Assembly (NCBI RefSeq): GCF_030028105.1
Contig: NC_092377.1
Location: forward strand, 96,974,865-97,038,864
From: Mobula birostris
Lineage: Eukaryota
Reading direction: 5' to 3'
DNA length: 64,000 nucleotides
Of this stretch, positions 51-45,680 are shown in pieces; position 1 is the first letter of the stretch, and each line of letters starts with the position of its first letter. Both the position numbers and the translations under genes were made by a program. The notes below the pieces were generated by a model, which worked only from the letters and a program-made list of their open reading frames with translations, did not search any database and had not been told where the DNA came from.

Positions 51-86
51 AGTCGACGTTTCGGGCCGAGACCCTTCATCAGGACT
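51..86 (-). ncRNA. Minimal type-I hammerhead ribozyme motif, intact core
   Basis: Reverse complement reads agtc CTGATGA a gggt ctcg gccc GAAA cgtc gact: conserved core, stem II, GUC cleavage triplet, stem I agtc/gact. Confidence 0.8.
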
Positions 87-315
87 AACTGAAGGAAGAG
101 CTAGTAAGAGATTTGAAAGTTGGAGGGGGAGGGGGAGATCCAAAATGATAGGAGAAGACAGGAGGTACCTGTCCAGCTCTTGGCTCCATCCCTCCCCCCT
201 CCTGTCTTCTCCTATCATTTTGGATCTCCCCCTCTGGATCTCCCCCTCTCCTATCATTTTGGATCTCCCCCTCCCCCTCCCACTTTCAAATCTCTTACTA
301 CCTCTTCTTTCAGTT

Positions 316-351
316 AGTCCTGACGAAGGGTCTCGGCCCGAAACGTCGACT
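316..351 (+). ncRNA. Minimal type-I hammerhead ribozyme motif, intact core
   Basis: agtc CTGACGA a gggt ctcg gccc GAAA cgtc gact. Confidence 0.82.
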
Positions 352-411
352 GTACCTCTTCCTAGAGATGCTGCCTGGCCTGCTGCGTTCACCGGCAACT
401 TTGATGTGTGT

Positions 412-1100
412 AGCATAAATGACAGTGATACTTCCGATGAGTTCAACAACTTTTATGCATTCTTTGAAAGCAAGAATAACACTATGCTTCTGTGAAACCC
501 CAAAGTGACTGGCAACCCTGTGATCTCAGAAACTAATGTCAGAACATTCTTCAAGAAGGTACCTGGCTGGTACTGACCAATTGACTAGAATGTTCAAGGA
601 CACCTTCAGCTTCTTACTGCTGCAGTTGAAGGTTCTCATCTGTTTTAAAAGGGGTCAATCATACCGGTGCCCAAGAAATACAGGGTGGGTTCCCTCAATG
701 ACAATTGACCAGCAGCATTCAAAGTGATGAAGTTCTTTGAGGGATTGGTCATGGCTAGAATTAACCCCTGCCTAAGCAAGGACTTGGACTCACTACAAAT
801 TGTCTATTACGCCAACAGGGTTATAGTAGACACAATCTCACTGTCTCTTCATTCAGCTTTGGAACACCTGGACACCCGCAAAACATACATCAGGCTGCTG
901 CTTATTGATTAGAGCTCAAACTTAAGCACCACCATCCTTTCTGTATTAATGAGCAAGCCTGAAAACCTGAGCCTCGGCAACTGGATTCTTGACTTCCTAA
1001 TTGGGAGGCCACCGTCAGTGCAGATTGATGATAACACCTCCTTCTCGCTGACAATCAACACAGGTGGCACCTCAAGAATGCATGCTTAGTCCACTGCTCT
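412..1100 (+). mobile_element. Decayed Rex/Babar-type LINE RT fragment
   Basis: Peptide MKFFEGLVMARINPCLSKDLDSLQIVY...LEHLDTRKTYIRLLLID (724-912) matches the MKCFERLV...LDPLQFAY...VRLLFID pattern also seen at 10003-10377 and 30972-31190. Confidence 0.75.
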
Positions 1101-2317: not shown

Positions 2318-3070
2318 ATAGAACATAGAATATTATAGTACAATATGGTTCATGATGTTGTGCTGACCTTTTAACCAATCAATCTAACCCTCCCCCCCCA
2401 CACACACCCCTCAATTTTTCTATCATCCACATGCCTAAGAGTTTCTTAAATACCATTGCCCCTAGCAGGGCATTTCATGCACCCACCACTCTCTGTGTAA
2501 AAAAACTTACCTCTGACATCTTCCCCCCCACCATACCTTCCTCCAATCACCTTAAAGTTATGACCCTCATGCTAGCCATTTCTGCTCTGGGAAAAAGTCT
2601 CTTGATTATCCACTCACACTATGCCTCTTAATATCTAGTACGACTCTATCAAATCACCTCTCATTCTCCTTCACTCTAAAGAAAAAAGCCCTAGCTCATT
2701 CAACCTATCCTCATTTAGGCTCTCTAATCCAGTAGCATCCTGGTAAATCTCCTCTGCTTGCTCGCTAAAGCTCCCCATCCTTCCTAAAATCAGGAGACCA
2801 TAACTGAAAACAATATTCCAAGTGTGGTCTAACCAGGGTTTAACAGAACTTCAAAATTACCGTGCAGCTCTTGAACTCAGTCCTCCACCTAAGGAAAACC
2901 AACACACCAGGTGCATTCTTTATAACCCTATCAACTTACGTGATATCTTTGAGGGATCTGTGGGCTTGGACCCCAAGTTCCCACTGTTTGTCTACACTAA
3001 GAATCCTTCCTTTAACCCTGTACGCACTGCCCTCAAATTCGAACTTCCAAAGTGAGTCACTTCACACTTT
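2318..3070 (-). mobile_element. CR1-like LINE 3' fragment
   Basis: (ATAGAAC)-like tail at ~2320; sequence parallels the better preserved CR1 3' end at 59970-60723. Confidence 0.7.
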
Positions 3071-3077
3071 ATAATAT

Positions 3078-3732
3078 AGAATACATTGGGAGACCGCTTT
3101 TCTGAGCACTATGCTCCGTCTGCCAGAAAAAGCGAGGTCTCCCAGGGGCCACTCATTTTAATTCCACATCCCATTCCCATTCCAACATGTCAGTCCATGT
3201 CTCCCCTACTGTTGCAATGAGGCCACACTCAGGTTGGAGGAGCAACTCCTCATATTCCTTCTGGGTAACCTCCAACCTGATGGCATGTACATCAATTTCT
3301 CGAGCTTCCAGTAATGCCCCCCCCTTACCATTCCCTACCCTATTCCCTCTCTCACTTTATCTTCTTGCCTACCCATCACCTCCCTCTGGTGCTTCTCCAC
3401 CCCCCACCCTTTTTTTCTTCCATGGTCTTCTGTCCTCTCCTATTAAGATTCTTCCTTCTCCAGGCCTGTATTTCTTTTCACCAATCAACTTCCCCACTCT
3501 TTACTTCAACTCTTGCACCCCCCCCCATTTCACCAATCACCTTGTGTTTCTTCTCCCTCTTCCCAACTTCTAATTCAGACTCCTCATCTTTTTCCTCCAG
3601 TCCTGATGAAGGGTCTCGGCCTGAGACATCAACTATACTCTTTTCCATAGGTGCTGCCTGGCCTGCTGAGTTTCTTCAGCATTTGTGTTTGTTGACTGGA
3701 TTTCCAGCATCTGCAGATTTTCTCTTGTTTGA
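3078..3732 (+). mobile_element. Penelope-like element 3' fragment (GIY-YIG C-terminus plus pLTR with degenerate hammerhead at 3599-3634)
   Basis: gggagaccgcttt...cacactcaggttggaggagcaac...ctccaacctgatggcatg matches 45068-45270. The hammerhead has GAAA changed to GAGA. Confidence 0.85.
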
Positions 3733-7620: not shown

Positions 7621-7790
7621 ATGGAGAGAAATGGACAGTTGACGTTTCATGTACAGACCCTTCATCTAGACTGGAATCAATCCTGTTGAAGCGTCTTCAT
7701 ATGAAACATCAGCTGCCCATTTCTCTCCATAGATCTTGCCTGACCCACGGAGTTCATCCAGATTCCAACGTCTGCCATCTTGTGTCTTCA
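7621..7790. mobile_element. Old inverted pair of Penelope pLTR ends with two degenerate hammerheads, inside a decayed CR1-like tract
   Basis: atggagagaaatgg...ccatttctctccat are exact inverted ends; the arms carry gacgtttc...cccttcatctagact and tcctgttgaag...gaaacatcagct. Confidence 0.65.
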
Positions 7791-8574: not shown

Positions 8575-9548
8575 AAACATGAATTTATGTCCTGATGCCT
8601 CTAATAAAATTAAAGCTGACTGGGAAAGAGAACTTGAGATTAATATACCGACTGAAAAATGGGAAAAAATTCTTCAGTTGGTGAATTCATCCTCTGTATG
8701 TGCTAAGCATAGGTTGATACAGTTTAAAGTAGTTCACAGGGCTCATATGTCCAAAGATAAACTATCTTGTTATTACTCTTATATTAATCCAATATGTGAC
8801 AGATGCCAGTCTGAGATTGCTTCTTTAACTCACATGTTTTGGTCATGTCCCTTGTTGGAGAAATATTGGAAAGATATTTTTGATATTATTTCAACGGTCC
8901 TAAATCTAGACTTACAACCTCATCCAATTACTGCTATCTTTGGATTACCAATGATAGACTCAAATAATTTAACCTCTTCATCAGGAAGGATGATTGCATT
9001 TCTTACTTTAATAGCTAGAAGGTCCATCTTGTTGAATTGGAAAGAGATCAACCCTCCTACAGTATTTCATTGGTTTTCACAAACTATGCTGTGTCTAAAT
9101 TAGAAGTGCAGTTTATGACCCTTCTATTAAGTTTGAAAAAATTTGGAGGGCATTTATTCAGCATTTTCATTTGATGTAATTTGATCATTCCCAAACTGGT
9201 TTTATTTCTCTGTACTGTTGTTGGAGGGGAATGGAGGCGTCAACGCTGAGGTTTTCTTCTTTTCCATTTTTAAGTTGTTAGTTTTGCCCAAGTCTTTTAG
9301 CTTAGTTTAGTGTTTTTTTTTCTTTTGGAATGGGTTTTTTTTTCTTTTTTTTGTCTTTTTCCTTTTTTTTTTGCTTTATATTATCCGTGATCAGTTCTAC
9401 ATGTATGGGAGTTTTGGTAATTTCCACTATTTGGTTTTGCAATTACTCTTTTTTTAAATGTAACAATACATCTCATATTATCTGTAATATTGCTATGTTT
9501 TGTTTCTATATTTTGAAATTAATAAAAAGATTGAAAAAGAAAGAAAGA
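8575..9548 (+). mobile_element. L1-clade LINE 3' fragment (ORF2 C-terminus, T-rich 3' UTR, AATAAA and (GAAA)n tail)
   Basis: ORF 8579-9103 IQFKVVHRAH...CDRC...LTHMFWSC is the L1 ORF2 C-terminal Cys/His motif, homologous to 49224-49847; tail aataaaaagattgaaaaagaaagaaag. Confidence 0.88.
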
Positions 9549-10029
9549 CAAATAAAACAGCAGATAAATAATGGCACAGCCTATCAATGATTTTTTTTTG
9601 GGTGATGCTCCAAAGCAATTAATCTTAGTAAGATTAGCATGTATCCAACTGTGTTCAGCAATGGAATGACTAATTCACCCATTTACAGAGAGTCAGGACA
9701 GGTAGGTGAATGTTCTTGGTCGTACATACTAAGAACATTCCATGTACAGTGAAAAGCTTTGTTTTGCATGCCATCCATACAGATCATTTCATGATAGCGG
9801 TACACTGAGGTTATACAAGGGAATAACAATGAAGAATATAGCGTTACAGTTACAGACAGCAAGTTTATGACTTTACACCATCTATTACAATGTATTTAAA
9901 GCTGGTAAGTTTGAGCAACTGCAATAATATTTAATAATACCTAAATTAGCAGATGTACATTTCCATCTGTAAAAGATACCTAGGATATGATACAGCATAC
10001 TCGTGGTATTACTTTTCGACAATCTTACA

Positions 10030-11027
10030 GTCACTCTCTCATTGTTACAGTCAGAAGTTCCCAGCTACTTCAAAAGGGCAATAATCATATCAGTACCCAA
10101 GAGAAGTAGGATGAGCTGCCTCAACAAATATTGGCCAGTAACACTGAAACCAATGGTGATGAAGTGCATTGAGAAGTTGGTCATGGCTAGAATCAACTCC
10201 TGCCTCAGGAAGGACCTGGACCCATTGCAATTTGCTTATCACCAGAATAGGTCTACAGTAGATGCAGTCTCACTGGCTCTCCACTCAGCCTTACATCTGC
10301 ACAATAGCAATATCTACATCAGGCTGCTGTTATTGACTACAGCTCAGCATTTAACACAATCATTCCCACAGTTCTGATCAAAAAGCCCCAAAATTTGGGC
10401 CTCTGTACCTTCTTCTGCAACTGGATCCTCTACTTCTTCACTGAAAGGCCACAGTCTGTACGGATCAGAAATAACATCTCCACTTTGCTGATAATCAACA
10501 CTGGCACGCCTCAAGGATATGTGCTTAGCTCATGGTTCTACTCTTTCTACACCCTTGACTGTATGGCTAGGCACAGCTCTAATGCCATCTGTAAATTTGT
10601 CAACATCTCTGAGGATCTATCCTGGGCCCCACATATAGATGCAGTTACGAAGAAGACACAACAGCGGCTATACTTCATTATGAGTTTGAGGAGATTTGGA
10701 ATGTCACCAAAGACACACACAAATTTCTATAGTCGTACTGCAGAGAACATTGTAACTGGCTGCATCACTGTCTGTTAATGGGGGGTGGACACTACACAGG
10801 ATCACAGTAAGCTGCAGAAAGTTGTAAACTCAGTCACCTCCCTCATGGGCACTTGCCCCCCCAACATCCAGGATATCTTCAAGGAGCAATGCCTCAAAAA
10901 GGCAGCATCCATCATTAAGGACTCTCATCACCTAGGACATGCCCCTCATCTCAATGCTACCATCATGGAGAAGGTAAGGAGACTGAAGGCACACACTCAA
11001 TGATTCAGGAATAGCTTCTTCTCCTCT
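10030..11027 (+). mobile_element. Rex/Babar-type LINE RT 3' portion, decayed
   Basis: VMKCIEKLVMARINSCLRKDLDPLQFAYHQNRSTVDA; TGTPQGYVLS; ISEDLSWAPHIDAVTKKTQQRLYF. Confidence 0.8.
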
Positions 11028-11130
11028 GTCCTGATGAAGGTCTCGGCCTGAAACATCGACCATTTACTCTTTTCTATATATGCTACCTGGCCTGCTGAGT
11101 TCCTCCTGCATTTACTGTGTTTTGCTTGCT
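11028..11130 (+). mobile_element. Short Penelope pLTR end starting at a hammerhead motif (11028-11060)
   Basis: gtc CTGATGA aggt ctcg gcct GAAA catc gac followed by ...gctacctggcctgctgagttcctcc. Confidence 0.75.
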
Positions 11131-18205: not shown

Positions 18206-20030
18206 GCTCAAAAGCCGTGAATTCCATAGATTCACCACTCTCTGTCTGAAGAAACTTCTTCTCATCTCTGTTCTAATGGGATGTCCTGTTATTCACAGGC
18301 TTGCCCTCTGGTCTTAGGCTCCCCTGCTATAGGAAACTTTCTCTCATGTCCACTCTATCCAGGCATTTCAATTTCAGGAGATAACATTACCATCATTTAA
18401 TTTTACCATCATATCTTATTCCCTCAGTTACCTCACTAACTTCCCTCTCCATGCATCTATATTATTTATCAGATTCTAAATGTGTCTATATAATTCATCT
18501 CAACAAGATCATGTGGGACTGAGTTTGACATTTTTACCAATCTAAGTAAAAAAGCTTCTCATAAATTGTTTCTGACTAGTGACTTTCCTATATTTATAAA
18601 ATGTGATTGGACTTCATTTAACAATATATGCTTACTGATTTAATTTTAAACATTTGTTTAGCTTTACAGTCAGCTTTCATTTGTAGCTGTAAGCAAGTAG
18701 TTACCAGTTAGCTGCCTGTCACCCACTAAATTAAGAACTGAGGTTACTAAGATGATTCAGAATTTGTAGCATCTAAGATAATAAATCTGGATTCTACTAA
18801 AGTACAGTGTACAGAATCTACTGAGCGCAGTGCCTACAGAGCAAGGGACCTCAGTAAGAAAGGACAAGGTGTATTTTTTAATCTAAATAATTAAATAAAT
18901 TTAAATAGTTTCCAACAAGTGGGCTCACCCTAAAGGAAAGAAGTAATGCAGGACCTCTCAGATACCTTCGGTGCAACGTGGAAACTCAAGGACATGTCCA
19001 GTCTATTGAGATGAATGGGAATGTCATGAGCAGCATATTCAGTCAGACCACAGTCCAGGAAAGAAGAATCAGATGAAATAAGTCACTGATGGAAAAGTGA
19101 AAACAAGCTGGTAGGTAGTTCAGCAGACCCTAGAGCATCTTTCTCTCGAAAGTTTTGAATACTGATGGGTTAGGCCATGAGTAGAAACCATCAGGTAGTA
19201 AGTTCAAGAGACCCAAGGACATCTTGTTCTCTAACCAGCATTTGGTTCTGAATACAGATGGTGAAGAGGGTTCTCTGCAGAGTGCAACTACAACCAACAC
19301 TATAACATCAGGGCAGCTCCGCAGCACAGGAAGGAAGGAGAAAGGTCAAGACAACAACAGTTCCGAGGATTCTATATTTATGGCTGTAGACAGGCATTTC
19401 TACCATCACAGATGTAATTCCTAAATGGTATACTGCCTCCTTGATTTCAGCACCAAGGGTAACAGAGAGTGGCTGCAGAATATTCTGGAAGTGGTTGGGG
19501 GGGGAGGGGTTAAATAGTTATGAGGTTAAGTTCATATCAGTACCAATGACGCAAATGGGAAAAGGGGTGATGTTCTGCAGATACATTTTATGCAGTCGGG
19601 AAATAAGCAGGAGGATCTTAAAAGTAGAAATTCCAAATTACTTTTGAAGCCACGCGCCAGTGAGTATAGAAATAAAGGTTTAGTGCCAATTAATGGGTGC
19701 TTGAAAATATGGTGCAAGGAAAGCGATTGTGATTCATGGATTAATGGGACTGTTCTGGGGAGGGTGAAATTTATGCAGAACAGTTGGACTGCATGTGAAC
19801 AGGACTGGAACAAATATCCTTGTGGGGAAGGTTCCCTGTTTCGCAGGGAGATAGGAATCTGAGCATAGATTCAGAGGGAGAAAAGCAAAACTAGAAATGG
19901 AAGGCAGAAAATAAATCAGAGTTTGAAACATAAAGTAAACAAAAATTAGAAAATACAAAGAAAAGGCATCTTAATGCAAATTAAGAAAAGGAGTCTTTGT
20001 TTAATGCAAAAGGAATTATGAGTATGGCAG

Positions 20031-20717
20031 CAACACACATCAAAATTGCTGGTGAACGCAGCAGGCCAGGCAGCATCTCTAGGAAGAGGTACAGTCGACG
20101 TTTCGGGCCGAGACCCTTCGTCAGGACTAATTGAAGGAAGAGCTAGTAAGAGATTTGAAAGTGGGAGGGGGAGGGGGAGATCCAAAATGATAGGAGAAGA
20201 CAGGAGGGGGAGGGATGGAGCCAAGAGCTGGGCAGGTGATTGGCAAAAGGGATATGAGAGGATCATGGGACAGGAGGCCCAGGGAGAAGGAAAAGGGGGG
20301 GGGGACCCAGAGGATGGGCAAAGGGTACAGTCAGAGGGACAGAGGGAGAAAAAGGAGAGAGAGAGAAAGAATGTGTGTATATAAATAAATAACGGATGGG
20401 GTACGAGTGGGAGGTGGGGCATTAGTGGAAGTTTGAGAAGTCAATGTTCATGCCACCAGGTTGGAGGCTACCCAGACGGAATATAAGGTGTTGTTCCTCC
20501 AACCAGAGTGTGGCTTCATCTTTACAGTAGAGGAGGCCGTGGATAGACATATCAGAATGGGAATGGGATGTGGAATTACAATGTGTGGCCACCGGGAGAT
20601 CCTGCTTCTCGGCCCGAAATGTCGACTGTACCTAGAGATGCTGCCTGGCCTGCTGCGTTCACCAGCAACTTTGATGTGTGTTGCTTGAATTTCCTGCATC
20701 TGCAGAATTCCTCGTGT
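20031..20717 (-). mobile_element. Penelope-like insertion: pLTR plus GIY-YIG C-terminus (minus) followed by a short inverted pLTR end (plus); 15-bp target-site duplication
   Basis: TTATGAGTATGGCAG at 20016-20030 and 20718-20732; body matches 21960-22550; orientation switch at ~20605. Confidence 0.92.
20093..20128 (-). ncRNA. Minimal type-I hammerhead ribozyme motif, intact core
   Basis: Reverse complement: agtc CTGACGA a gggt ctcg gccc GAAA cgtc gact. Confidence 0.82.
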
Positions 20718-22026
20718 TTATGAGTATGGCAGATGAGTTTAGGGCACTGATGAACACAGCAAAGTATGGTATTAAATTCATTACTGTAAAGTAGCTTAAT
20801 GGGAGGAAGAGCTGCAAGTGAAACAGGTAGATGGGAATATAAGTAAAAGATAATGTCTTGGTTGTGAGAAGTATGTTCGAAGAATCTGTAAGTGCGGTCC
20901 TATAGTTTGAACTCAAGTACAAAAAGAGGAAGAAGTCAGAAAATCAATTGACAATGACTGGATAATTTCAATTACTCTAATATTAACTTGGATACCAAGA
21001 TTATAAAGGAATAGAGGGCATAGAGTTCCCAAAGTGCATTCAAGAGTACTATTTTATCCAGTAATGTAGCAAACCTAACAAAGCAGGTGGGGGGGTTGAT
21101 CCTGGGAGAGTACTTTTGTAGTGTTGATTACAATTCAGCTAAATTTAACACAGTTGTGAAAAAAGAACTAAGATAAACTCATGAGTATAGATGTTAAATG
21201 TGCATCAATGAGAGGTTCTTGAAACAGTATGTCTGCATCCAGGAGGAGGGTTTCCAGAGAGGGAAAAAACATACTGGTCTTGCTTTTGGGAAATGATCCA
21301 GGCCAGGTGACAAACCTGATAGTGGGTGAACATTTTGGGAATAATGACCACAACTCATCATGTTTTATGACAATTATGATTAAGAATAAAATCTGACTTT
21401 GCAGAAAGTTAGGGGAGGGAAAGTTATGACAGGATAAGACAGGAGTTAGGGAGCATTGATCAGGAAATCCACATCTGACATGTGGGAGTTATTTAAAGAG
21501 TAGCTGATCAGAGTTGAGGATCAGCATGTTCCAATAAGAAGCAAGGACAAGGGTGATAAAGTTAGGGAGGCTTAGAATACCTGAGACGTCCTGAATTTAG
21601 TCGGAAGGAAAAGGAAGCATATGTAAGGTTTAGGAAGCTAAACCAGACTGAGAATCCTTGTAGAATAAAAAGAAAGCAGTGAAGTACTCAATCAGGCAAT
21701 TATGTCGGCCAAAAGGGAATACGAAATGTTCTTGATGAGCAGGATGAAGGAGAATCTCAAGATATTTTATACTTCTATTAAGAAAAAGAGGATAACTAAG
21801 GGGAAGATAGGTCCACTCAAGAGTAAAGGAGGGAATTTCTGCTCGGAGTCAAAACAAGTGGCTGAAATACTCGTTGAGTACTTTGCATTGGTGTTTACCT
21901 AGAAGGATTTGGAAGATAGTGAAAACAGAAACAACAGGAATTCTGCAGATGCTGGAAATTCAAGCAACACACATCAAAGTTGCTGGTGAACGCAGCAGGC
22001 CAGGCAGCATCTCTAGGAAGAGGTGC

Positions 22027-22062
22027 AGTCGACGTTTCAGGCCGAGACCCTTCGTCAGGACT
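22027..22062 (-). ncRNA. Minimal type-I hammerhead ribozyme motif, core intact, one G-U pair at the base of stem II
   Basis: Reverse complement: agtc CTGACGA a gggt ctcg gcct GAAA cgtc gact; same sense as the PLE ORF and ~300 nt downstream of its stop codon. Confidence 0.8.
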
Positions 22063-22359
22063 AACTGAAGGAAGAGTGAGTAAGGGATTTGAAAGTTGGA
22101 GGGGGAGGGGGAGATCCAAAATGATAGGTGAAGACAGGAGGGGGAGGGATAGAGCCAAGAGCTGGACAGGTGATAGGCAAAAGGAGATACGAGAGGATCA
22201 TGGGACAGGAGGTCCGGGAAGAAAGACGGGGGGGGGGGGGGGGACCCAGAGGATGGGCAAGAGGTATATTCAGAGGGACAGAGGGAGAAAAAGGAGAGTG
22301 AGAGAAAGAATGCGTGCATAAAAATAAGTAACAGATGGGGTACGAGGGGGAGGTGGGGC

Positions 22360-24258
22360 CTAGCGGAAGTTAGAGAAGTCGATGTTCATGCCATCAGGTT
22401 GGAGGCTACCCAGACGGAATATAAGGTGTTGTTCCTCCAACCTGAGTGTGGCTTCATCTTTACAGTAGAGGAGACCGTGGATAGACATGTCAGAATGGGA
22501 ATGGGATGTGGAATTAAAATGTGTGGCCACTGGGAGATCCTGCTTTCTCTGGCGGACAGAGCGTAGATGTTCAGCAAAGCGGTCTCCCAGTCTGCGTTGG
22601 GTCTCGCCAATATATAAAAGGCCACATCGGGAGCACCGGACGCAGTATATCACCCCAGTCGACTCACAGGTGAAGTGTTGCCTCACCTGGAAGGACTGTT
22701 TGGGGCCTTGAATGGTGGTAAGGGAGGAAGTGTAAGGGCATGTGTAGCACTTGTTCCGCTTACACGGATAAGTGCCAGGGGGGAGATCAGTAGGGAGGGA
22801 TGGGGGGGACGAATGGACAAGGGAGTTGTGTAGGGAGCGATCCCTACGGAATGCAGAGAGAGGGGGGGAGGGAAAGATGTGCTTAGTGGTGGGATCCCGT
22901 TGGAGGTGGCGGAAGTTACGGAGAATAATATGTTGGACCCGGAGGCTGGTGGGGTGGTAGGTGAGGACCAGGGGAACCCTATTCCTAGTGGGGTGGCGGG
23001 CGGATGGAGTGAGAGCAGATATACGTGAAATGGGGGAGATGCGTTTAAGAGCAGAGTTGATAGTGGAGGAAGGGAAGCCCCTTTCTTTAAAAAAGGAAAA
23101 CATCTCCCTCGTCCTTGAATGAAAAGCCTCATCCTGAGAGCAGATGCGGTGGAGATGGAGGAATTGCGAGAAGGGGATGGCGTTTTTGCAAGAGACAGGG
23201 TGAGAAGAGGAATAGTCCAGATAGCTGTGAGAGTCAGTAGGCTTATAGTAGACATCAGTGGATAAGCTGTCTCCAGAGACAGAGACAGAAAGATCTAGAA
23301 AGGGGAGGGAGGTGTCGGAAATGGACCAGGTAAACTTGAGGGCAGGCTGAAAGTTGGAGGCAAAGTTAATAAAGTCAATGAGTTCTGCATGCGTGCAGGA
23401 AGCAGCGCCAATGCAGTCGTCGATGTAGCGAAGGAAAAGTGGGGGACAGATACCAGAATAGGCACGCAACATAGATTGTTCCACAAACCCAACAAACAGG
23501 CAGGCATAGCTAGGACCCATACGGGTGCCCATAGCTACACCTTTAGTTTGGAGGAAGTGGGAGGAGCCAAAGGAGAAATTATTAAGAGTAAGGACTAATT
23601 CCGCTAGACAGAGCAGAGTGGTGGTAGAGGGGAACTGATTAGGTCTGGAATCCAAAAAGAAGCGTAGAGCTTTGAGACCTTCCTGATGGGGGATGGAAGT
23701 ATATAAGGACTGGACATCCATGGTGAAAATAAAGCGGTGGGGGCCAGGGAACTTAAAGTCATCGAAAGGTTTAAGAGCGTGAGAAGTGTCACGAACATAG
23801 GTCGGAAGGGATTGAACAAGGGGTGATAAAACAGTGTCGAGGTATGCAGAAATGAGTTCGGTGGGGCAGGAGCAAGCTGAGACAATAGGTCGCCAGGACA
23901 GGCAGGTTTGTGGATCTTGGGTAGGAGGTAGAAACGGGAAGTGCGGGGTGTGGGAACTATAAGGTTGGTAGCAGTGGATGGGAGATTCCCTGAGCGGATA
24001 AAGTCGGTGATGGTGTGGGAGACAATGGCCTGGTGCTCCTTAGTGGGGTCACGATCGAGGGATAAATAAGAGGAGGTATCCGTGAGTTGTCGCTGTGCCT
24101 CGGCAAGGTAGGGGTCAGTACGCCAGACTACAACAGCACCCCCCTTATCGGCGGGTTTAATAATAAGGTTAGGATTAGTGCGAGGGAGTGGAGAGCAGAG
24201 CGTTCCGAAGGAGTGAGGTTGTAATGGGGACAAGGTGCCGTAAAGTCGAGACGGTTGA
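22360..24258 (-). pseudogene. Penelope RT/GIY-YIG polyprotein, 5'-truncated, one frameshift near 23891; 453-aa C-terminal part open
   Basis: IIKPADKGGAVVV, YLLPKIHK, MDVQSLYTSIP, GVAMGTRMGPSYA, LRYIDD, FLDL, linker CKRNKCYTC, GVIYCVRCSRCGLLYIGET...RFAEH...VATHF. Confidence 0.93.
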
Positions 24259-24823
24259 TGAAAACAGAGTAGGGCAAGCTAATGCGCTGGGATATTTTAA
24301 GATTAATTAAGATTTCTCAGTGCTGGGTCTTCTATAAAAAAATTATGGTGGATAAGTTCCCAGAAGGTGATGGTATATATCCCAAAATATCGAAAGAAGC
24401 AAGTGAGGATATACTTGGGGTGTTGACAAATATATTTCTGCCCTCACTAGCAACAAGTGAGATTGCAAAGGACTGGAGAGTAGCAAATTTGAGTCTTTGT
24501 TAAAGAAAGGAAATAGGGATAATCCAGGTAGTTACACGCATAAACCAGTGAGCCTCGCATCAGTGGCAGAGAAGCTATTTGTTAGGGTTTATATGCACTT
24601 GGTAAGGCATGGCTTCCTCAGGGACTGTCAGCATGGCTGTGTAGGATAGCTCATGCTATACAAATATGACATTTTTTGAGAAGATGACAAAGGAGCTTGA
24701 TGAGGATAAAGAAGAGCATATTTTCTACATGTACATGGGTTGATAAGTAAGTTTGCAAATGACATCAAGTTTGATGAAGTTGTGAGCAGTGTAAAGGACC
24801 ACCAAAGAAAACAGCGGAATATA

Positions 24824-25355
24824 TACTCAGTGGCCACTTTATTAGGTATAGGAGGTACCGAATAAAATGGCCACTGAGCATATTCTGGATGTCTGTTGCC
24901 TTCTCCTGTTGTAGCCCATCCACTTCAAGGCTCAACGTGTTGTGCATTGAGAGATGCTCTTTCCACAGCACGGTTGTTACACATCGTTATTTGAGTTACT
25001 GTCGCCTTCTTGTCAGCTTTAATCAGTCTGGCTATTCTCCTCTGACATCTCTCATTAACTAGATGCTTTTGCCCACAGAACTGGATTTTTTTTTTTGCTT
25101 TTCGCACCATTCTCTATAAACTCTAGGAACTGTTGTGCATGAAAATCTCACGAAATCAGCAGTTTTTGAGATACTCAAACCACCTCGTCTGGCACCAACA
25201 ATCATTCCATGGTCAAAGTCACTTAGAGCAGATCTTTTCCCCATTCTGCTGTTTGGTTTGAACAACAACTGAACCCCTTGACAATGTCAGCATGCTTTCA
25301 TGCATTAGGTTGCTGTTACATAATAGGCTGATTAGATATTTGTATTAACGAGCAA
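24824..25355 (-). mobile_element. Tc1-like DNA transposon remnant (N-terminal HTH region of the transposase)
   Basis: MGKRSALSDFDHGMIVGARRGGLSISKTADF...; LVNERCQRRIARLIKADKKATVTQIT; terminal ctcagtggccactttattaggta after TA, with an inverted copy at 24855-24878. Confidence 0.85.
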
Positions 25356-29266: not shown

Positions 29267-31185
29267 AAATCAGAATAAGAATCAGGTTTATTATCACCTG
29301 AACATGTCGTGAAGTTTGTTAACTTAGCAGCAGCAGTTCAATGCAATACATAATATGGAAGATAAATAAATAAATAAAGCAATTACAGTATATTGAATAG
29401 ATTTAGAAATCTATTTTTAAAACTGCAATAATATATAGTAAAAAAGTGTTCTATTTAGGAATCGGATGGCAGAAGGGAAGAAGCTGTTCCTGAATTGCTT
29501 TTCTGTACCTCCAATCTGATAGTAACAGTGAGAAAAGGGCATGCCCTGGGTGCTAGAGGTCCTAAATAATGGAAGCTGCCTTTCTAAGACACTGCTCCTT
29601 GAAGATGTCCTGGGAACTTTGTAGGCTAGCACCCAAGATGGAGCCGACTAAATTTACCACCCTCTGCAGCTTCTTTCGATCCTGTGCAGTCGGCCCCCAC
29701 CCCCATACCAGACAGTGATGCAGCCTGTCAGTATGCTCTCCACAGTACATCTATATAAGTTTTTGAGTGTATTTGTTGACATGCCAAATCTCTCCAAACT
29801 CCTAATAAAGTACAGCTGTTGTCTTGCCTTCTTTATAACTGCATTGATATGTTGAGACCAGGTTACGTCCTCAGAGATCTTGACACCCAGGAACTTGAAA
29901 CTGCTCACTCTCTCCACTTCTGATCCCTCGATGAGGATTGGTATGTGTTCCTTTGTCTTACCCTTCCTGAATTCCACAACCAGCTCTTTTGTCTTACTGA
30001 CGTTGAGTGCCAGGTTGTTGCTGCAACACCACTCCGCTAGTTGGCATATCTTGCTCCTGTACACCCTCTCGTCACCATCTGAGATTCTACCAACAATGGT
30101 TGTATCATCAGCAAATTTATAGGTGGTATTTGAACTATGCTTAGCCATACAGTCATGGGTATAGAGAGAGTAGAGCAGTGGGCTATGCACACACCCTTGA
30201 GGTGCACCAGTGTTGATTGTCAGTCAAGAGGAGATGTTATTACCAAACTGCACAGATTGTGGTCTTCCGGTTAGGAAGTCGAGGATCCAATTGCAGAGGG
30301 TGGTACAGAGGCCCAGGTTCTGTAACTTTTCAATCAGGATTGTAATGATGGTATACAGATAGATAGGATAGTTAAGAAAGCTTATAGAGTGTTAGTCGAG
30401 AGATAGAGTTTAAGAGTCGCGGGGTAATGATGCAGCTCTAGAAAACTCTAGTTAGGCCACACTTGGAATACTGTGTTCAGTTCTGGTCGCCTCACTATAG
30501 GAAGGATGTGGAAGCATTGGAAAGGGTACAGAGGAGATTTACCCGGATGCTGCCTGGTTTAGAGGGTATGCATTATGATCAGAGATTAAGGGAGCTAGGG
30601 CTCTACTCTTTGGAGAGGAGCAGGATGAAAGGAGACATGATAGAGGTATACAAGATATTAAGAGGAATAGATAGAGTGGACAGCCAGCGCCTCTTCCCCA
30701 ATACACCACTGCTCAATACAAGAGGACATGGCTTTAAGGTAAGGGATGGGAAGTTCAAGGGGGATATTACAGGAAGGTTTTTTACTCAGAGAGTGGTTGG
30801 TGCATGGAATACACTGCCTGAGTCAGTGGTGGAGGCAGATACACTAGTGAAATTTAAGAGACTACTAGGCAGCTATATGGAGGAATTTAAGGTGGGGGGT
30901 TCTATGGGAGGCAGGGTTTAAGGGTCAGCACAACATTGTGGGCCTAAGGGCCTGTACTGTGCTGTACTATTCTATGTATTAAATGCTGAACTATAGTCCA
31001 TAAACAGAATCTTGATGCAGGTGTTTCTGTTGTCCAGGTGGTCTGAAGCCGTGTGAAGAGCCATTGAGATTACATCTGCCATTGACCTATTGTGGTAATC
31101 GACAAATTTCAATGGGTCCAGGTCCTTGCTGATGTAGGAGTTTAGACTAGTCATGACCAACCTCTCAAAGCATTTCATCACCATC
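29267..31185 (-). mobile_element. Rex/Babar-type LINE 3' half with (ATTCTG)n-like tail, interrupted by a CR1 insertion
   Basis: VMKCFERLV...DYSSAFNT (30972-31190) continues as SPLLYSLYTHDC...KFADDTTIVG...LNVSKTKELVVEFRK...FKFLGV (29654-30190). Confidence 0.88.
30356..30975 (+). mobile_element. CR1-like LINE 3' end nested in the Rex/Babar copy
   Basis: LEYCVQFWSPHYRKDVEALERVQRRFTRMLPGL...LYSLERSRMKGDMIEVYKI...FFTQRVVGAWNTLP; tail gtactattctatgt. Confidence 0.9.
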
Positions 31186-32726: not shown

Positions 32727-34385
32727 AACGAGAGAAAATCTGCAGATGCTGGAAATCCAAGCAACACACACAAATTTCTGGAGGAACTCAGCAGGCCAGG
32801 CAGCATCTATGGCAGGGGTCCCCAACCATTTTTGTACCGTGGACCGGTTTATTACTGACGATATTCTTGCAGACTGGCCAACCCAGGTGGGGGGGGGGGG
32901 GGGGGGCGGGGGGGAGGTATGGTTGCCAACAGACAGGAGTAGCAGACAAATATGTTGTGTTTACCCCAAGAAGACTATCATGACCATGAAGCCTTGTGCA
33001 GGCACCAGTGCGCATGCGTGTATGTGCCAATTTTTTTCTACAAGTCGTTTTTTGGCGATTCTGTTTGGGGGGGGTGTTAATCACGACTGGAATATAGGTG
33101 ATAAGTGGCTAATACACCCAATTTCGTTTCTAAAAGGATTTATCTAACGGATTTAATATTAAACACACAGCGCATATTTTCCTCGCATGAATATAGTGAT
33201 AAGTCAATTATAAGTCACTTATAAGTCAATAGCATCATAACCTTTTAAGTAACGTTTGGATATTAAACACACAGCACATATTTTCCCCGTGTGAACATAT
33301 AAAATCATTACAACACACCAATATCGCTGAATCAGTGCGAGCTCTGGGCTTGTTTCCCTGCAACAAAACGGTGCCATCGAGGGGTGATGGGAGACAGCGA
33401 TACTCGAAGGGAGTTCCTTATATCCAGTCTATTCCGCAATTTAGTTTTCGTTGCATTCATTGCAGAGATATGTTGGAAATGGAAGCAACGTTTTCAGTGC
33501 TTTTATGGCTATCTCAGGATATTTAGCCTTGACTTTGATCCAGAATGCCGGCAGAGATGCTATGTCAAACATACTTTTCAGCCCGCCGTCATTTGCAAGC
33601 TCGAGGAGTTGATCTTCTTCCCGCGCTAACATGGATGACGCATGCGTAATGACCTCACGTGTGTTCAACCTCAAATGTGACCGTGACAGGGAATGAGGAA
33701 AGGTGCAGCTGACTCATATCGCCAAATCATATCGTTTCCTCACGGCCCGGTAGCACATGCTTTGCGGCCTGGTAGCTGGGGACCGCTGATCTACGGAAAA
33801 GAGTACAGTCGATATTTCGGGCCGAGACCCTTCATCAGGACTGGAGAAAAAAAAAGGGGAGGAGGAGAGAAACACAAGGTGATAGGTGAAGCCGGAAGGG
33901 AGAAGGGTAAACAGCTGGGAAGTTGAATGGTGAAAGAGATACAGGGCTGGAGAAGGGGGAATCTGATAAGAGAGGACAGAAGACCATGGAAGAAGGAAAA
34001 GGGGAGAGGAGCACCAGAGGGAGGTGATGGGCAGGCAAGGAGATAAGGTGAGAGAGGGAAAAGTGAATGGTGAGGGGGAGGGGGCCATATGTTCATGCCA
34101 CCAGATTGGAGGCTACCCAGACAAAATAGAAGGTATTGTTCCGCCAACCTGAGTGTGGCCTCATCGCGACAGTAGAGGAGGCCATGCATAGACATATCGG
34201 AATGGGAAGTGGAGTTAAAATGGATGACCAGTGAGAGATCCCGCTTTTATCTTGGAAGTTAGAACCCGACAAATTAAAACACTGATTGCTTACCCCTCTC
34301 TGTAGATGCTGTGTGATCTGCTGGGTTCCTTCACCATTTTGCATGTTACTCTGGATTTTCAGTATCTGCAGAATCTCTTGTGTTT
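32727..34385 (-). mobile_element. Older Penelope pLTR plus GIY-YIG tail with a short inverted end, split by a hAT insertion; hammerhead variant at 33807-33842
   Basis: MSMHGLLYCRDEATLRLAEQYLLFCLGSLQSGGMNI matches the PLE C-terminus; hammerhead reverse complement agtc CTGATGA a gggtctcggccc GAAA tatc gact. Confidence 0.85.
32813..33788 (-). mobile_element. hAT (Charlie/Buster-like) non-autonomous DNA transposon
   Basis: TIRs caggggtccccaacc and agctggggaccgctg; 8-bp TSD ATCTATGG (32805-32812) / ATCTACGG (33789-33796); dimerisation-domain piece SLPAFWIKVKAKYPEIAIKALKTLLPFPTYLC. Confidence 0.9.
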
Positions 34386-37302: not shown

Positions 37303-37600
37303 TAACACGAGGAAATCTGCAGATGCTGGAAATTCAAGCAACACACATAAAAAAAGCTGGTGAACACAGCAGGCCAGGCAGCATCTATAGGAAGAGGTAC
37401 AGTCAACGTTTTGGGCCGAGACCCTTCATCAGGACTAACTGAAAGAAGAGATAGTAAGAGATTTGAAAGTGGAAGGGGGAGGGGGAGAACCGAAATGATA
37501 GGAGAAGACAGGAGGGGAAGAGATGGAGCCAAGAGCTGGAAAGTTAATTGGCAAAAGGGATATGAGGCTGGAGAAGGGAGAGGATCATGGGATGGGAGGA
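37303..37600 (-). mobile_element. Solo Penelope pLTR with a mutated hammerhead (37401-37436)
   Basis: Matches 20040-20270; hammerhead reverse complement ...ggccc AAAA cgtt gact (G12>A, C17>T). Confidence 0.88.
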
Positions 37601-38450: not shown

Positions 38451-40083
38451 CAATGTTCCCTCTAATTTTTAGTAGTCAGTGTGCGCAAAAATATTATGTT
38501 GTGCAAATTTTTTTCCTGTGACAAAAGTATGTGCGCACTGAATGCACACATGGCACAGTTTATGTAGGTTTACAAAATATTTGACATAAAACTGCACAGA
38601 ATAACAACAAAATAACATACATATTTAAGTCACTCAGTTATTTTTTCTCTCTCCTGTCTTTGGCATTTACCCATTCTTTGTAAACTATATCTCGACGAAT
38701 AGAACTTCCATCCAATTGATAGCTTTTGATTCTCATTAACATATCCAAATGACAATCACCTAAAACAGTGGTCCCCAACCTCCGGGCCGCGGACCGACAC
38801 ATTGCTGCGAAGAACCCGATATTTACGTGCCAGGCAGCACCTAATTAATTAGCTTGTTTATTTCGGCTTTTTTCTTAAAGATGTGCTGGGTGCATTCCGA
38901 CTACCGCTGCACCACTGCATTCTTTGTGGCTTTGTAATGGTCCACAGCCCGGAGGTTGGAGACCACGGACCTAAACGGTTTCTCAGCTTGTTTTTGAGCT
39001 GATTCATTAGGCTAAAACTTCGCTCACAGTCCGCACTAGATGCAAGAAAGGTTCCCCCAATGTCCATCAACTGTGCAAGGTTGCAAAACTGTTCATTTTG
39101 AAGTACAAATGCCACCAATTGAGCAAAGTTTGAAATCGGCTTGGATTTAATTTTTTCTTGCACAGAAAATTTGAAATCATTAAACTGTCTAGCTATTACA
39201 ATATTTTCAGCTAGAAAATCATGATATTTCAGACATAAGGCATTAACTTGTTCATCGCCTAGTGTGAAGTCACAATCTGCAATTGCGGAGAAATCAAAAG
39301 CTGACCATTCTTGTACCTTAACTTTGATCTCCTCTGGGTTTGATCGTTTTCGCTCTCGCTCATCTGCACTCAACCGTAACATACATAGCACTCCTCCAAC
39401 GGGTAATGACGGGTTCTGTTGCCTGAGCTTTTGTACACTGTCCAAGTGCGATTTACTTGCCAAATGACACTTCAAAAAGTCAAGTTTCTAAATATCATCC
39501 CACATCTTTCCACTAGCAAATTCTCCAGCAACTTTCGCATCACGACAATACAAACAGATAACTCCAGTTTCCAAATCATACATAAATATTTCTCGTAGCT
39601 GAATGTTCATGACGTCATGAGCTTTTGGTGTAACAGGTTCTATTATTTTGTTAAGCCATTCAACTTTAATCAAATTTGCAGTTCTTTTGCGCTTCACACC
39701 CTTCGCTTCTTTTGAATTCGACATAGTGAATCAATATTTTTTCCAATAAAAACTTAGTAAGCTACCTACAGGATTTGAAACAGATCTTTTTAAACTTTAC
39801 GATATGAACACTGTCTGTCAAAGATGGCTGCCGCCGTGATGCAGTTGTACAAACCAGAACAGGAAAGGTGAGGTGACGTAAATTAGTGACGTGCATTGTG
39901 GTATTTGAAAAACCGACTACCTAGTTAACAGAAACTGTTAGGTAAAAGATCATTTTCAATATGTATAATTATTAATTACCACATTATTTTAGGTAACTAA
40001 CCTTTTGGGCACACATTAATTTCCTTTGTGTGCTGGCTAAAAAACGTGCGCGCGCACACGCGCTCAGCTTAGAGGGAACTATG
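38451..40083 (-). mobile_element. hAT DNA transposon with an internally deleted ZNF862-like transposase
   Basis: TIRs caatgttccctctaa and ttagagggaactatg; TSD CCGGCAGC/CTGGCAGT. ORF from 39724: Zn-finger-like GVICLYC...HLASKSH joined to the C-terminal LASSADCERSFSLMNQLKNKLRNRL; in-frame stop at 39488. Confidence 0.88.
38766..38968. mobile_element. hAT-Charlie-type MITE inserted in the hAT transposase 3' end
   Basis: TIRs cagtggtccccaacctccggg and cccggaggttggagaccacgg; TSD ACCTAAAA (38758-38765) / ACCTAAAC (38969-38976). Confidence 0.9.
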
Positions 40084-41513: not shown

Positions 41514-42459
41514 AATGAAATATAGCCCCTGGAGTGCCTTCTTCATAATTGCATCAATATTGACACCAAGAGCTTGAAGCTGCATACTGGATTGTAATAA
41601 TTAATGATGCACTATATGTTTATTTCATGAACTTTAAATTATTTCAGTATCTAAAGATAAACATTCTAGCTGAAACATTATGTTCAAAAAGAGTAGTCTG
41701 TATGACAAATATCAATTCCTCATCTTTTAAATATCTGACAGAAGTGGAGTCCAGGCTTTCTATTATAATACCTTACAAGAGCAGTATCATGCATTACAAA
41801 CTTAACTGAATTACAGAGTACAATTTACAGTATCAACATGCCATACTGCAGCCAGATTCCTCACTCTAGTGCAACTATACTTGAAGGAATTTGGCAGTTA
41901 GCCCTTGTACGTTTCTTATTAATAGTCATCATGTGCATGGAATTAATTAAAATAACTAAGTACAGTAGCTCCATATAGATCAGTAATAGAATTTATTTTT
42001 CTCCCTAACAAGGTCAGTATTTTCTGAAATATAACCCAAGACATTAAATGAAGACAGAAAACTACAGTTACTAAAAGCATTAAGCTGTCATTGGCCAACC
42101 TACATACACCTATCTTGCCCAGACCAGGCTTTGTTTTCATGTAAGTAAATCCAGAAGATGATTCCTTTAGTTTAAGAGCACCAGCTATTTAAAAGCTTCT
42201 GGCAATGTTATATAGTTTTCTTCATTCTCTTTATTACTTGCACAAAGCCTATTTCAAAACATGATTCAAAATATGGTCAGACAATCATCAATTGATTTAG
42301 TTCTTCCGGGAATGATTCATTCAAAACAGTTGCTCAGAAAAATAAATGCAAGGAGAAATAAGTTTATATTTAAATTTAACTTTGTCCTTTTCTAGAGAAA
42401 ATAGAAAAGATAGACATAGGACCGTACAGCTCTAGGACAGGTCTTCTTGCCCACAATAT

Positions 42460-42730
42460 TTATTTATTTAGAGATACTGCGTGGAACAGGCCCTTATGGC
42501 CCAAGGAACACCACCACCACAATTGATCTATTTAACACTAGTCTAATCACATGACAATTTACAATAACCAATTAACATGCTAAAGGTATGTCTTTGGACT
42601 GTGGGAGCAAACCAGAGCACTTGGAGAAAACCCAATGTGGTTCACAGGAAGAACAGATGGCACGAATTGAAATCCAAACTAGGGAATGCCCCGAGTTGAA
42701 TAGCTTCGCACTAACTGCTACGTCACCATG
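42460..42730 (-). mobile_element. V-SINE/HE1-like SINE
   Basis: gtatgtctttggactgtgggagcaaaccagagcacttggagaaaaccc...ggttcacaggaagaac...gaattgaa. Confidence 0.65.
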
Positions 42731-44417
42731 GTATCCATGATGCAATCCTTGCGACAACCATGATGCCAAGTCAAACTAAACCATCTACAAAACAGCTAAT
42801 ATTCCTCCATTCCCTGCCTGTTCATGTGCCTGTCTCAATGCCTGTTAACATTACTATTGTATCTGCTTCCACCACCTCTGCTGATGCAATTTCCAGACAT
42901 TGACATACAATGCTCCATGTAAAACTAAACTTGCATCATAATCTTATTTAAACTTCTCCCTCCCACCTTAAAGCTGATTCCTGTGGTATTTGACATTCCC
43001 AGGCTCTGATTATCTACCCTATCAATGCTTCTAATATATCAGGTTACCCCTCAGCCTGCAATGCAAATTTGTCCAGTGTCTCCTTATAAGAAATACCAGT
43101 ATGAATTTAGGAGAAAAATCCATACCCAAAAACTAGAAACTACATGGACTGGTCAAGTGAATAAGATTTAAGGGGGACGCTGATACGTACACAAAGGAAA
43201 AAGAAATAAAATGGTGAGCTGATGGAGACTGCGCCTGTCTGTAAATGGAGTAGCAGCAGTTTTTGTGCTGCTCCCAGTTTTGTTCCCTTTCCCCTAGTTT
43301 AAACTTCGAATTTAAAATTTTTATTTGCTGATTCTTGAAGGGGAACAATATGTCTATACCTACGAGGAGTGGGAAAAACTTGTCTGATCCTAGTGATAAA
43401 ACTAATGGGAAAGGAAAGATGGGAAAGGAAAGATGCAAAAGGAAAGATCTGATGAAATGCCACCATGGGCTGAAGATATGGTTCAGACACTGAATTCAAT
43501 TAAAGATCAGAATGGGTCAATTGAAGACCAACTGGAAAAGAATAGTAATGAAATGAAGTTATTTCTGGGAAAACCTAAAGACCTGGAAACTCAAGTTATT
43601 ACACACGAAGAGGAATCGAAGATAACTAAGCAAAAATTGTTTGAAACTACAACTTGTTTGGAAAGATATCAAAATAAGATTATAGACCTGGAAACTAGGT
43701 CTCGCCGAAGGAACATATGAATTGTTAGGCTGCAAGAAGGAGCCGAAGATGGAGATTTAACTGCTTACTTTGGTAAGCTTTTTCATACCTTATTTCCTAC
43801 CATATTATCACTGCCACCTACTATAGAAAGAGCACACAGAGCTTTTACTTCGAAATCTAAAGATCCAAATAAACCAAGGTCTGTTTTAGTTTGTTTTCAT
43901 CACTTTAAAATTAAAGATCAAATAATGCGACAGGCAAGAAAACAGACGTGTGCTCCGCTTTTATGAGGATTATCTGAAAGAGGTAATGGAACAAAGATCA
44001 AAATTTGCTCTGGTAATGAAACAGGCATATGATAAGAAACTGTTCCCTTCCTTGCGTTACCCAACAAGAATTAAAGTTTTTCCTCCTAATTTTCCTCCTC
44101 GTACATTTTTTTCATCCTAAAGTTGCACTGGCGTTCGTTCAAACTATACCTGCTGCAGCTGCCGAATGAACTGTCTTGGAAGGCTGCTTGGTTATCTGTA
44201 TATTATTGGCATTTTGGAAAGAAGATTTACAATGATTACTTGGACATTTCATTGCGAGACTATTAAAAGAAAATAAGGGGATTTGTTCATTATTGCATAG
44301 CATTGGTTTTTTTGGAAAGAAGATCTATGGTTCAAGTATGACTGTTTAATTGGTTATTTGGATATTCGACTAAGAAAAGGAAGGTAAAGGGACTTGTTTC
44401 TTTAACCCAATATCTGG

Positions 44418-45680
44418 TTTGATTCTCACAGCTATCTGGACTATTCCTCTTCTCACCCTGTCTCTTGCAAAAACGCCATCCCCTTCTCGCAATTCCTCCG
44501 TCTCCGCCACATCTGCTCTCAGGATGAGGCTTTTCATTCTAGGACGAGGGAGATGTCTTCCTTTTTTAAAGAAAGGGGCTTCCCTTCCTCCACTATCAAC
44601 TCTGCTCTTAAACGCATCTCCCCCATTTCACGTACATCTGCTCTCAATCCATCCTCCCGCCACCCCACTAGGAATAGGGTTCCCCTGGTCCTCACCTACC
44701 ACCCCACCAGCCTCCAGGTCCAACATATTATTCTCCGTAACTTCCGCCACCTCCAATGGGATCCCACCACTACGCACATCTTTCCCTCCCCGCCTCTCCC
44801 TGCATTCCGCAGGGATCGCTCCCTACGCAACTCCCTTGTCCATTCGTCCCCCCCATCCCTCCCCACTGATCTCCCTCCTGGCACTTATCCCTGTAAGCGG
44901 AACAAGTGCTACACATGCCCTTACACTTCCTCCCTTACCACCATTCAGGGCCCCAAACAGTCCTTCCAGGTGAGGCAACACTTCACCTGTGAGTCGACTG
45001 GGGTGATATACTGCGTCCGGTGCTCCCGATGTGGCCTTCTATATATTGGCGAGACCCGACGCAGACTGGGAGACCGCTTTGCTGAACATCTACGCTCTGT
45101 CCGCCAGAGAAAGCAGGATCTCCCAGTGGCCACACATTTTAATTCCACATCCCATTCCCATTCTGACATGTCTATCCACGGCCTCCTCTACTGTAAAGAT
45201 GAAGCCACACTCAGGTTGGAGGAACAACACCTTATATTCCGTCTGGGTAGCCTCCAACCTGATGGCATGAACATCGACTTCTCTAACTTCAGCTAAGGCC
45301 CCACCTCCCCTCGTACCCCATCTGTTACTTATTTTTATGCACACATTCTTTCTCTCACTCTCCTCTTTCTCCCTCTGTCCCTCTGAATATACCTCTTGCC
45401 CATCCTCTGGGTAGCCCCCCCCCCCATCTTTCTTCCCGGACCTCCTGTCCCATGATCCTCTTGTATCCCCTTTTGCCTATCACCTGTCCAGTTCTTGGCT
45501 CTATCCCTCCCCCTCCTGTCTTCTCCTATCATTTTGGATCTCCCCCTCCCTCTCCAACTTTCATATCCCTTACTCACTCTTCCTTCAGTTAGTCCTGACC
45601 TGAAACGTCAACTGCAACCTCTTCCTACAGATGCTGCCTGGCCTGCTGCGTTCACCAGCAACTTTGATGTGTGTTGCTTG
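44418..45680 (+). mobile_element. Penelope-like element 3' part (RT thumb, Cys linker, GIY-YIG, pLTR) inserted between L1 ORF1 and ORF2
   Basis: ORF 44553-45296 is nearly identical to the C-terminus of 22360-23721; hammerhead with a 13-nt deletion at 45591-45613. Confidence 0.93.

Follow-up and report, generated by a model that had tools for sequence, protein, structure and literature searches.

A minimal hammerhead ribozyme in the terminal repeats of a young Penelope-like element of Mobula birostris, with insertions probably copied from uncut RNA

We analyzed a 64,000-nucleotide (nt) stretch of the Mobula birostris genome (assembly GCF_030028105.1, contig NC_092377.1, positions 96,974,865 to 97,038,864; hereafter, the window), in which a first-pass annotation had pointed to a recurrent 36-nt hammerhead ribozyme motif in the pseudo-long terminal repeats (pLTRs) of a Penelope-like element (PLE). 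The explanation that we favor, and consider fairly probable as a whole, is that the motif is the terminal-repeat hammerhead of a young PLE and that its copies are likely passengers, laid down from uncut RNA whose likely first nucleotide is the ribozyme's own first letter.

The motif is almost certainly a minimal type I hammerhead of a PLE, with stems I and II of 4 bp each, one extra A, and the sequence ACGU replacing helix III. It recurs exactly, as had been claimed, at 51 to 86 (−), 316 to 351 (+), 20093 to 20128 (−), and 22027 to 22062 (−), and all parts of the minimal architecture are present, namely, CUGANGA and GAAA, U16.1-H17, the extra base after A9, and a palindromic 15.2-16.2. In the intact plus-strand copy, stem I is formed by 316 to 319 and 348 to 351, CUGANGA by 320 to 326, the extra A by 327, stem II by 328 to 339, and GAAA by 340 to 343, placing the predicted cut after position 347. 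We number positions accordingly, with +1 being the G after GUC (window position 348 in this copy), −1 the C before it, and −32 the first A of stem I. Matches with up to three mismatches number seven in the window and zero in 100 shuffles. Genome-wide, a pattern of intact boxes plus ACGUC at a 13-nt spacing recovered 73,261 core-intact motifs versus 41 in the control, or about 18 per Mb of the 4.0-Gb genome, and exact 34-mers number 30,596 versus 0. Contigs of other organisms also carry the family; among the matches listed, differences within the motif are confined to N7, the stem II loop, and 11.1.

An alternative that we consider very improbable is that the motif is no ribozyme but a conserved promoter, splice, or protein-binding signal resembling one. 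The covariance-model check that the first-pass annotation proposed did not identify it: no hammerhead family is among the 24 Rfam matches at E ≤ 1 in the window, a miss that is expected because helix III is absent. (The miRNA-family matches in that search trace to an inverted repeat at 114 to 288 and a hairpin at 24819 to 24885, all below gathering scores, and were set aside.) Fold z-scores are near zero, and a polypyrimidine tract followed by AG precedes stem I in all subfamilies. Further, the core and ACGUC are intact in 39, and the whole 36-mer in 27, of 58 young copies that span the motif, and decay is neutral and CpG led, with the core being no more constant than the flanks and thus uninformative on selection. 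The 10.1-11.1 pair is G-C in 11 and G-U in 46 of these 58 (11.1 varies between C and U), no two-sided, compensatory stem change was seen within this family, and stem I measures 3 bp in one sister subfamily. Against a nonribozyme signal, every core position is in place and in register, published work has equivalent motifs cleaving in vitro, and unrelated families swap stems while keeping their pairing. The last point comes from a longer-spacer pattern that imposed no stem pairing and matched the genome 735 times (control, 185): 13 of the 30 loci listed have a 19-nt spacer and belong to other families with unlike stems and the same core plus ACGUC, and in all 13, 5 or 6 of the first 7 positions of stem II are paired, with a stem I of at least 3 bp forming in 8. 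Covariation of the stems across families is thus borne out to the extent that swapped stems stay paired in those families, which may or may not belong to PLEs. The loci L271, L272, L277, L278, L280 to L285, L292, L294, L297, and L298 represent at least four such minimal-hammerhead families with longer stem II, another stem I, and few copies. As separate observations, the sequence directly before stem I (22063 to 22110 on the minus strand, and in all subfamilies) is a polypyrimidine tract with CAG and resembles a 3′ splice site, and the endonuclease region has a strong donor-like site near 22686; spliced copies were not seen.

The carrier is best seen in the longest copy lying wholly in the window (21930 to 24260, −), which is 5′ truncated and has an intact hammerhead (22027 to 22062) and a long 3′ end (+101). 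The proposed PLE coding capacity, one open reading frame (ORF) encoding a reverse transcriptase (RT) and, at its C terminus, a GIY-YIG endonuclease (EN), agrees with what we found: its 559-amino-acid (aa) open frame (22360 to 24039, −) matches the RVT_1 profile (E = 1.8 × 10−7) and the GIY-YIG profile (E = 4.5 × 10−4; 20.9 bits, just below the 22.6 cutoff) and includes the RT with YIDD, a C-X4-C-X2-C linker, and the endonuclease with the CCHH set and two cysteines between GIY and YIG. The DKG motif of the element lies upstream of this frame in a shifted frame. The hammerhead is in the sense strand, 298 nt after the stop at 22360, in line with the reported distance of about 300 nt. Since a linker of the CX2-5CxxC type points to Neptune or Nematis rather than Poseidon by published definitions (PMC8557442), the element is, by its sequence, an EN+ PLE with a Neptune/Nematis-type linker, and we prefer Neptune because only Neptune and Poseidon were found in vertebrates by a recent survey (bioRxiv 10.64898/2026.07.22.740005). 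Loci outside the window reveal the full layout, a pLTR, a single ORF of about 1,090 codons, and a second pLTR. Three of four elements fetched (L205 to L207) have hammerheads on each side of the ORF, 3,724 to 3,730 nt apart, and the fourth has an internal jump; the hammerheads lie 138 nt ahead of the ATG and about 300 nt past the stop. Loci picked by an upstream ORF segment or the ORF start likewise continue downstream of the motif into the ATG at +139. The placement of the motif in pLTRs therefore holds for elements elsewhere in the genome, while no copy with two pLTRs was found in the window. The closest named proteins come from Mobula (87 to 94%), Hypanus (77 to 87%), and three sharks (62 to 71%), which fits the cartilaginous-fish host that had been inferred. 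As for recent activity, the best-scoring 150 RT copies, out of 73,263 candidates, have 95 to 98% protein identity to the window's copy, which speaks for a young burst, but no complete ORF was found among these 150 and 8 fetched copies, the longest frame having 1,014 aa and no N terminus. We also observed that long and short element versions are distinguished by an in-frame duplication of 213 nt within the ORF's Pro/Ser-rich N-terminal part (+780 to +1200; L039, L041, and L205 to L208).

To read the ends of insertions, we mapped both ends of 101 copies picked solely by an exact 35-nt anchor downstream of the motif. Hallmarks of PLEs are evident in this sample: 43 of the 101 have inverted junctions, target duplications are of 7 to 13 bp, and the 3′ ends fall into two groups (46 at +55 to +76 and 55 at +89 to +114) whose modes at 66-67 and 102-103 are about 35 nt apart, as in a PLE tail. 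In the flanks inspected, no (TA)n repeat was seen. The 5′ ends are distributed as follows. Downstream of the cut, at +1 to +19, there are 4 of 101, just one of them at +1. Within the motif, none of 97 fall at −11 to −1 and 15 of 97 at −27 to −12 (about 1% per nt). At the start of stem I, 22 of the 82 still at risk end at −33 to −28 (4.5% per nt), about 20-fold over background, when about 1 would be expected in these six positions. Farther upstream, 3 of 60 end at −38 to −34, and the frequency is then about 0.2% per nt. Twenty-six of the 101 apparent 5′ ends are alignment breaks with the element continuing upstream; nearly all are far upstream (one is inside the peak), so the background rate is inflated. 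The peak is present in both inverted (13/43) and plain (8/32) insertions, and by eye, a sister family has 7 of 30 ends at −33 to −28 and none at +1. When starts preceded by two foreign bases are counted genome-wide, there are 1,100 at −32, 310 at +1, and 194 at +5; 20 of 30 starts at +1 are inversion junctions, of which 7 are exact fold-backs on stem I, where the cDNA had reached −32. The 5′ ends thus pile up at the start of stem I and not at the cut site, implying that linear ribozyme-cut RNA is rarely the template, and we consider it quite probable from these ends that insertions are copied mostly from uncut RNA. Splicing of −32 to an upstream exon was rejected as their source, as the flanks are target duplications or inverted element with no common exon.

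In the mechanism that we propose, transcription would start at the A of stem I (−32), which lies within an initiator-like YYANWYY in all subfamilies seen and is constant where its pairing partner changes. YYANWYY is the initiator consensus. Promoters within pLTRs have been described for other PLEs (PMC2377424 and PMC3846280). From the insertion ends and this context, we rate a transcription start at −32 as slightly short of an even chance. RT would prime internally at two sites, about +67 and +102, which are seen as ends. Given such priming past the motif, every cDNA would take up the hammerhead first, and cDNAs primed at the 5′ repeat would run off at −32 to yield hammerhead cassettes of 100 to 135 nt; this would help explain why motifs outnumber ORF starts (212 exact junctions genome-wide) by two orders of magnitude. 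The fuller statement, that transcription begins at the ribozyme's first letter, that initiator and stem I are one sequence, and that the 5′ end becomes a SINE-like cassette of this size, we put forward tentatively. Two same-strand copies in one RNA, probably helped by protein, would be predicted to pair via ACGU and cut after GUC, thereby releasing a unit RNA able to circularize, a step that would be unnecessary for most insertions. The motif by itself is predicted to fold as an inactive rod, with a minimum-free-energy structure that pairs G5-G8 with C15.2-C17 (−11.9 kcal/mol; z of about −1), and we rate its activity as an assisted dimer as somewhat probable. The predicted rod and weak dimer agree with reports of inactive monomers and a weak dimer for single minimal hammerheads (PMC4209133), of one active frog dimer among nine, the other eight of which did not cleave (bioRxiv 10.64898/2026.07.22.740005), and of protein-assisted cleavage in an anole element (PMC11167929). 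A second hammerhead register cutting after an upstream GUU was rejected on inspection, with 1.1 being mispaired and sister families being without that GUU.

Several points weigh against this overall reading. The end sample comprises the first 100 anchor places plus one neighbor, all within the first 5.5 Mb of a single contig, and some of its entries are two arms of one insertion. The −32 start is read from DNA insertion ends and contigs; a cap-derived extra G was not found before −32 by eye (51 G versus 49 A, with many of the G's stemming from inversion microhomology), and the A/T-rich box about 30 nt upstream is weak in most subfamilies and absent in one. ViennaRNA gives the double hammerhead −16.3 kcal/mol versus −36.5 for the inactive optimum, and while nearest-neighbor energies leave out the catalytic core, an active dimer so much less favored would need help or may have very low activity. 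About half of the copies run past −39, for which a second template is needed (a 3′ repeat, a tandem, or a circle). Finally, cDNAs stop over the motif in similar proportions in the general sample (40/97) and at ORF-start loci (11/22), which also fits a stop at each passage.

The last of these points leads to the possibility, which we consider rather doubtful, that the −32 pileup is a structural stop, with RT being released or switching template after the 5′ arm of the hairpin or an exonuclease trimming the RNA to a folded, protein-bound motif. The end frequency indeed climbs from the loop through the 5′ arm (the above-mentioned 1% per nt at −27 to −12) and falls just beyond, exact fold-backs on stem I do occur (7/30), and template jumps at four loci also land at −31 to −33. 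However, the cDNA hairpin is weak (−3.8 and −2.6 kcal/mol), no stop among 97 is at its 3′ foot (−11 to −1), the stronger-hairpin variant is not enriched at −32 starts (16/100 versus 24/100 of 34-mer matches, by eye), and 0 of 13 loci of the long-stem families appear, by eye, to end at stem I.

The copies that run past −39 bear on another alternative, that the ribozyme is central to transposition as in the model of Cervera and de la Pena, wherein both hammerheads cut, the unit RNA is circularized, and RT on the circle restores the motif. Because intact motifs would be restored in this way, intact DNA junctions say nothing against cleavage. Long copies often end beyond +101 in 5′ untranslated region (UTR) sequence and so call for a template that is tandem or circular, the 5′ repeat extends past −139 in 11 of 30 ORF-start loci, and the core and pairing are kept across families. 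We nevertheless consider this model unlikely: a circle offers no end at −32, the +1 starts that linear cut RNA should produce are barely above control, and for the anole element, in vitro insertion by ribozyme mutants was normal and RNA-seq reads were not found to end at the cut site (PMC11167929). The locus L070 (about 1220 to 1990) has the same +349/−140 junction twice in one insertion, as expected of a circular or trimeric template; this is 1 locus of 15 and could be a later duplication. In 15 of the 30 ORF-start loci (L059 to L088), the sequence jumps out of the ORF and back into the terminal repeat, with 8 of the jumps leaving from +259 to +296. Such jumps yield short tandems with two same-strand hammerheads 200 to 490 nt apart, whose junctions are private and have microhomology (e.g., L060, L062, L070, L075, L077, L078, and L079), and from their sequences, such tandems are possible seeds of retrozymes. 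Separately, ten identical matches with regular spacing at G000:C6:35.6-36.3 Mb suggest a large tandem segmental duplication.

Under the preferred explanation, the dispersed hammerheads are likely passengers. The first-pass annotation had proposed that they may cut transcripts crossing the region on both strands, a claim that we could not support: the monomer is predicted to be an inactive rod, most copies are solitary, and opposite strands cannot pair in one RNA. That host transcripts are cut on either strand thus seems improbable to us. In its favor are the genomic density of core-intact motifs, one pair of intact same-strand motifs in the window (20093 and 22027; 1.9 kb apart), 13 same-strand pairs less than 1.5 kb apart in fetched loci, and the appearance of elements inside some ray gene models. 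Against it are the inactivity of monomers (PMC4209133) and of eight of nine frog dimers (bioRxiv 10.64898/2026.07.22.740005), the finding of no more than six fully intact motifs and a single close pair over the 264 kb surrounding the window, and the restriction of dimerization within one RNA to same-strand pairs. No Pfam match indicative of a host exon was above the cutoff among 124 nonrepeat frames of at least 55 aa in the window, a search that short exons would escape. The ray gene models in question, named kinase-domain and chitinase-domain proteins, contain RT/EN sequence of the element, which suggests exonization or misannotation.

All copies in the window are 5′-truncated or inverted pieces of one family plus older sister subfamilies. 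At its left edge is a head-to-head inverted insertion, the left arm of which extends from 165 to a point 46 bases past the window's start and carries the intact hammerhead at 51 to 86 (−); the right arm (167 to 420, +) comprises a 3′ UTR piece with a small tandem duplication, the intact hammerhead at 316 to 351, and a 3′ end near +70. A 5′-truncated copy at 20029 to 20607 (−), with the end of the endonuclease, the 3′ UTR, the intact hammerhead at 20093 to 20128, and a short 3′ end (+68), has an inverted partner arm at 20607 to 20718 (+) that starts inside stem II (−17), ends at +101, and was absent from the first-pass annotation. A piece from downstream of the hammerhead only (+19 to +101) is at 32727 to 32808 (−), and a 5′-truncated copy with an RT frame (62233 to 64000, +) continues outside the window, where an intact hammerhead lies about 550 bases from the window's end. 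The variant sites reported earlier proved to be real, all being decayed copies, and the seven hammerheads concerned are predicted to be dead. These are 3599 to 3634 (GAAA box broken, with CpG decay) in an older sister-subfamily fragment of 70% identity (3087 to 3729, +); an old inverted pair at 7637 to 7714, consisting of 7637 to 7672 (−) and 7679 to 7714 (+), with the first box broken; one that lacks a stem II base, in a short old fragment at 11027 to 11128 (+); 33807 to 33842 (ACGU palindrome lost) in a sister-subfamily fragment (33790 to 34247, −); 37401 to 37436 (G12>A and C17>U) in a 3′ fragment (37304 to 37566, −); and 45591 to 45613, which lacks 13 nt (G8, A9, and most of stem II), in a 5′-truncated copy (44420 to 45685, +) with an endonuclease frame to 45296.

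The window also has remains of other mobile elements. The 67-bp inverted repeat at 24819 to 24885 ends a probable short DNA transposon remnant (about 24820 to 25300), and further decayed elements are at 8576 to 9103 and 46882 to 49847; 9991 to 10778, 29654 to 30223, and 61473 to 62200; 30442 to 30921 and 60275 to 60742; and 38858 to 39487. Two of their frames have RVT_1 matches, and we take these elements to be L1/Tx1-like, two further LINE types, and a transposase-like frame.

The first-pass annotation framed this as a recently active ribozyme-retroelement system; minimal hammerheads of PLEs are a published class rather than a new system. The minimal metazoan PLE hammerheads (PMC4209133), reported also for the fish elements Neptune, Poseidon, and Xena, share with ours the type I form without helix III, the palindromic 15.2-16.2, the extra base between 9 and 10.1, a helix I of 4 to 5 bp, and a mostly solitary occurrence in pLTRs. 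Ours differ in a helix II of 4 bp (7 to 8 in Schistosoma), in the prevalence of U at 11.1 (46/58), and in being far more uniform and numerous (73,261 versus about 9,000 in Xenopus and 4,000 in the coelacanth, with search patterns that differ). PAc, a Poseidon element of Anolis (PMC11167929), is alike in having two internal RT starts with an optional tail, uncut RNA as the main substrate, and no ends at the cut site; it differs in having no CX2-5CxxC linker, in an ATG that falls inside the ribozyme, and in RT starts located in the ORF (here, the ATG is at +139 and the two RT starts are in the 5′ UTR), and a 5′-end pileup at stem I is not described in the accessible text. The Neptune clade (PMC8557442) shares the C-terminal GIY-YIG with CCHH, the CX2-5CxxC linker, DKG, partial tandems, inverted 5′-truncated arms, and a tail of 30 to 40 bp, but it has an insertion bias for (TA)n, which was not evident in the flanks seen here. 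Penelope of Drosophila virilis (PMC2377424 and PMC4209133) likewise has a promoter within the pLTR and an AG resembling a 3′ splice site at the 5′ end of helix I; its transcripts start 46 bp upstream of an intron of 75 bp whose end is at helix I, whereas here no spliced junction was seen and the ends are at helix I itself.

Animal non-long-terminal-repeat retrozymes (PMC7229834 and bioRxiv 10.64898/2026.07.22.740005), with up to 120,000 copies in the 28-Gb axolotl genome (copy number from the former and size from the latter), resemble the short same-strand tandems of 200 to 520 nt with two hammerheads that arise here. We rejected this identity for the window copies, which are fragments of the coding element with minimal rather than canonical hammerheads; the short tandems elsewhere have private junctions and form no amplified family. 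Our search of the open literature, with subscription papers and repeat databases outside its range, found no paper on this family, on rays or sharks, or on a 5′-end pileup at stem I. In their accessible portions, the bioRxiv survey counts one chondrichthyan among genomes with retrozymes (species and counts may be in its supplementary tables), and PMC6155905 mentions sharks for the name only.

With the class already known, the motif by itself is no discovery; what is new is the pileup of 5′ ends at the start of stem I, and what the family contributes is scale, with tens of thousands of young insertions constituting a base-level record of where reverse transcription starts and ends. This record bears on the open question of the role of PLE hammerheads in vivo: it adds genomic evidence from a second clade in support of the in vitro finding of uncut RNA as the principal template, and it points to a single position, −32. 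If the tentative account of the first letter of the ribozyme as transcription start is true, the ribozyme load of rays would be among the densest of any vertebrate, cleavage would serve as a switch that decaps and circularizes the element's own mRNA, and the genome would record which form of the RNA was copied.

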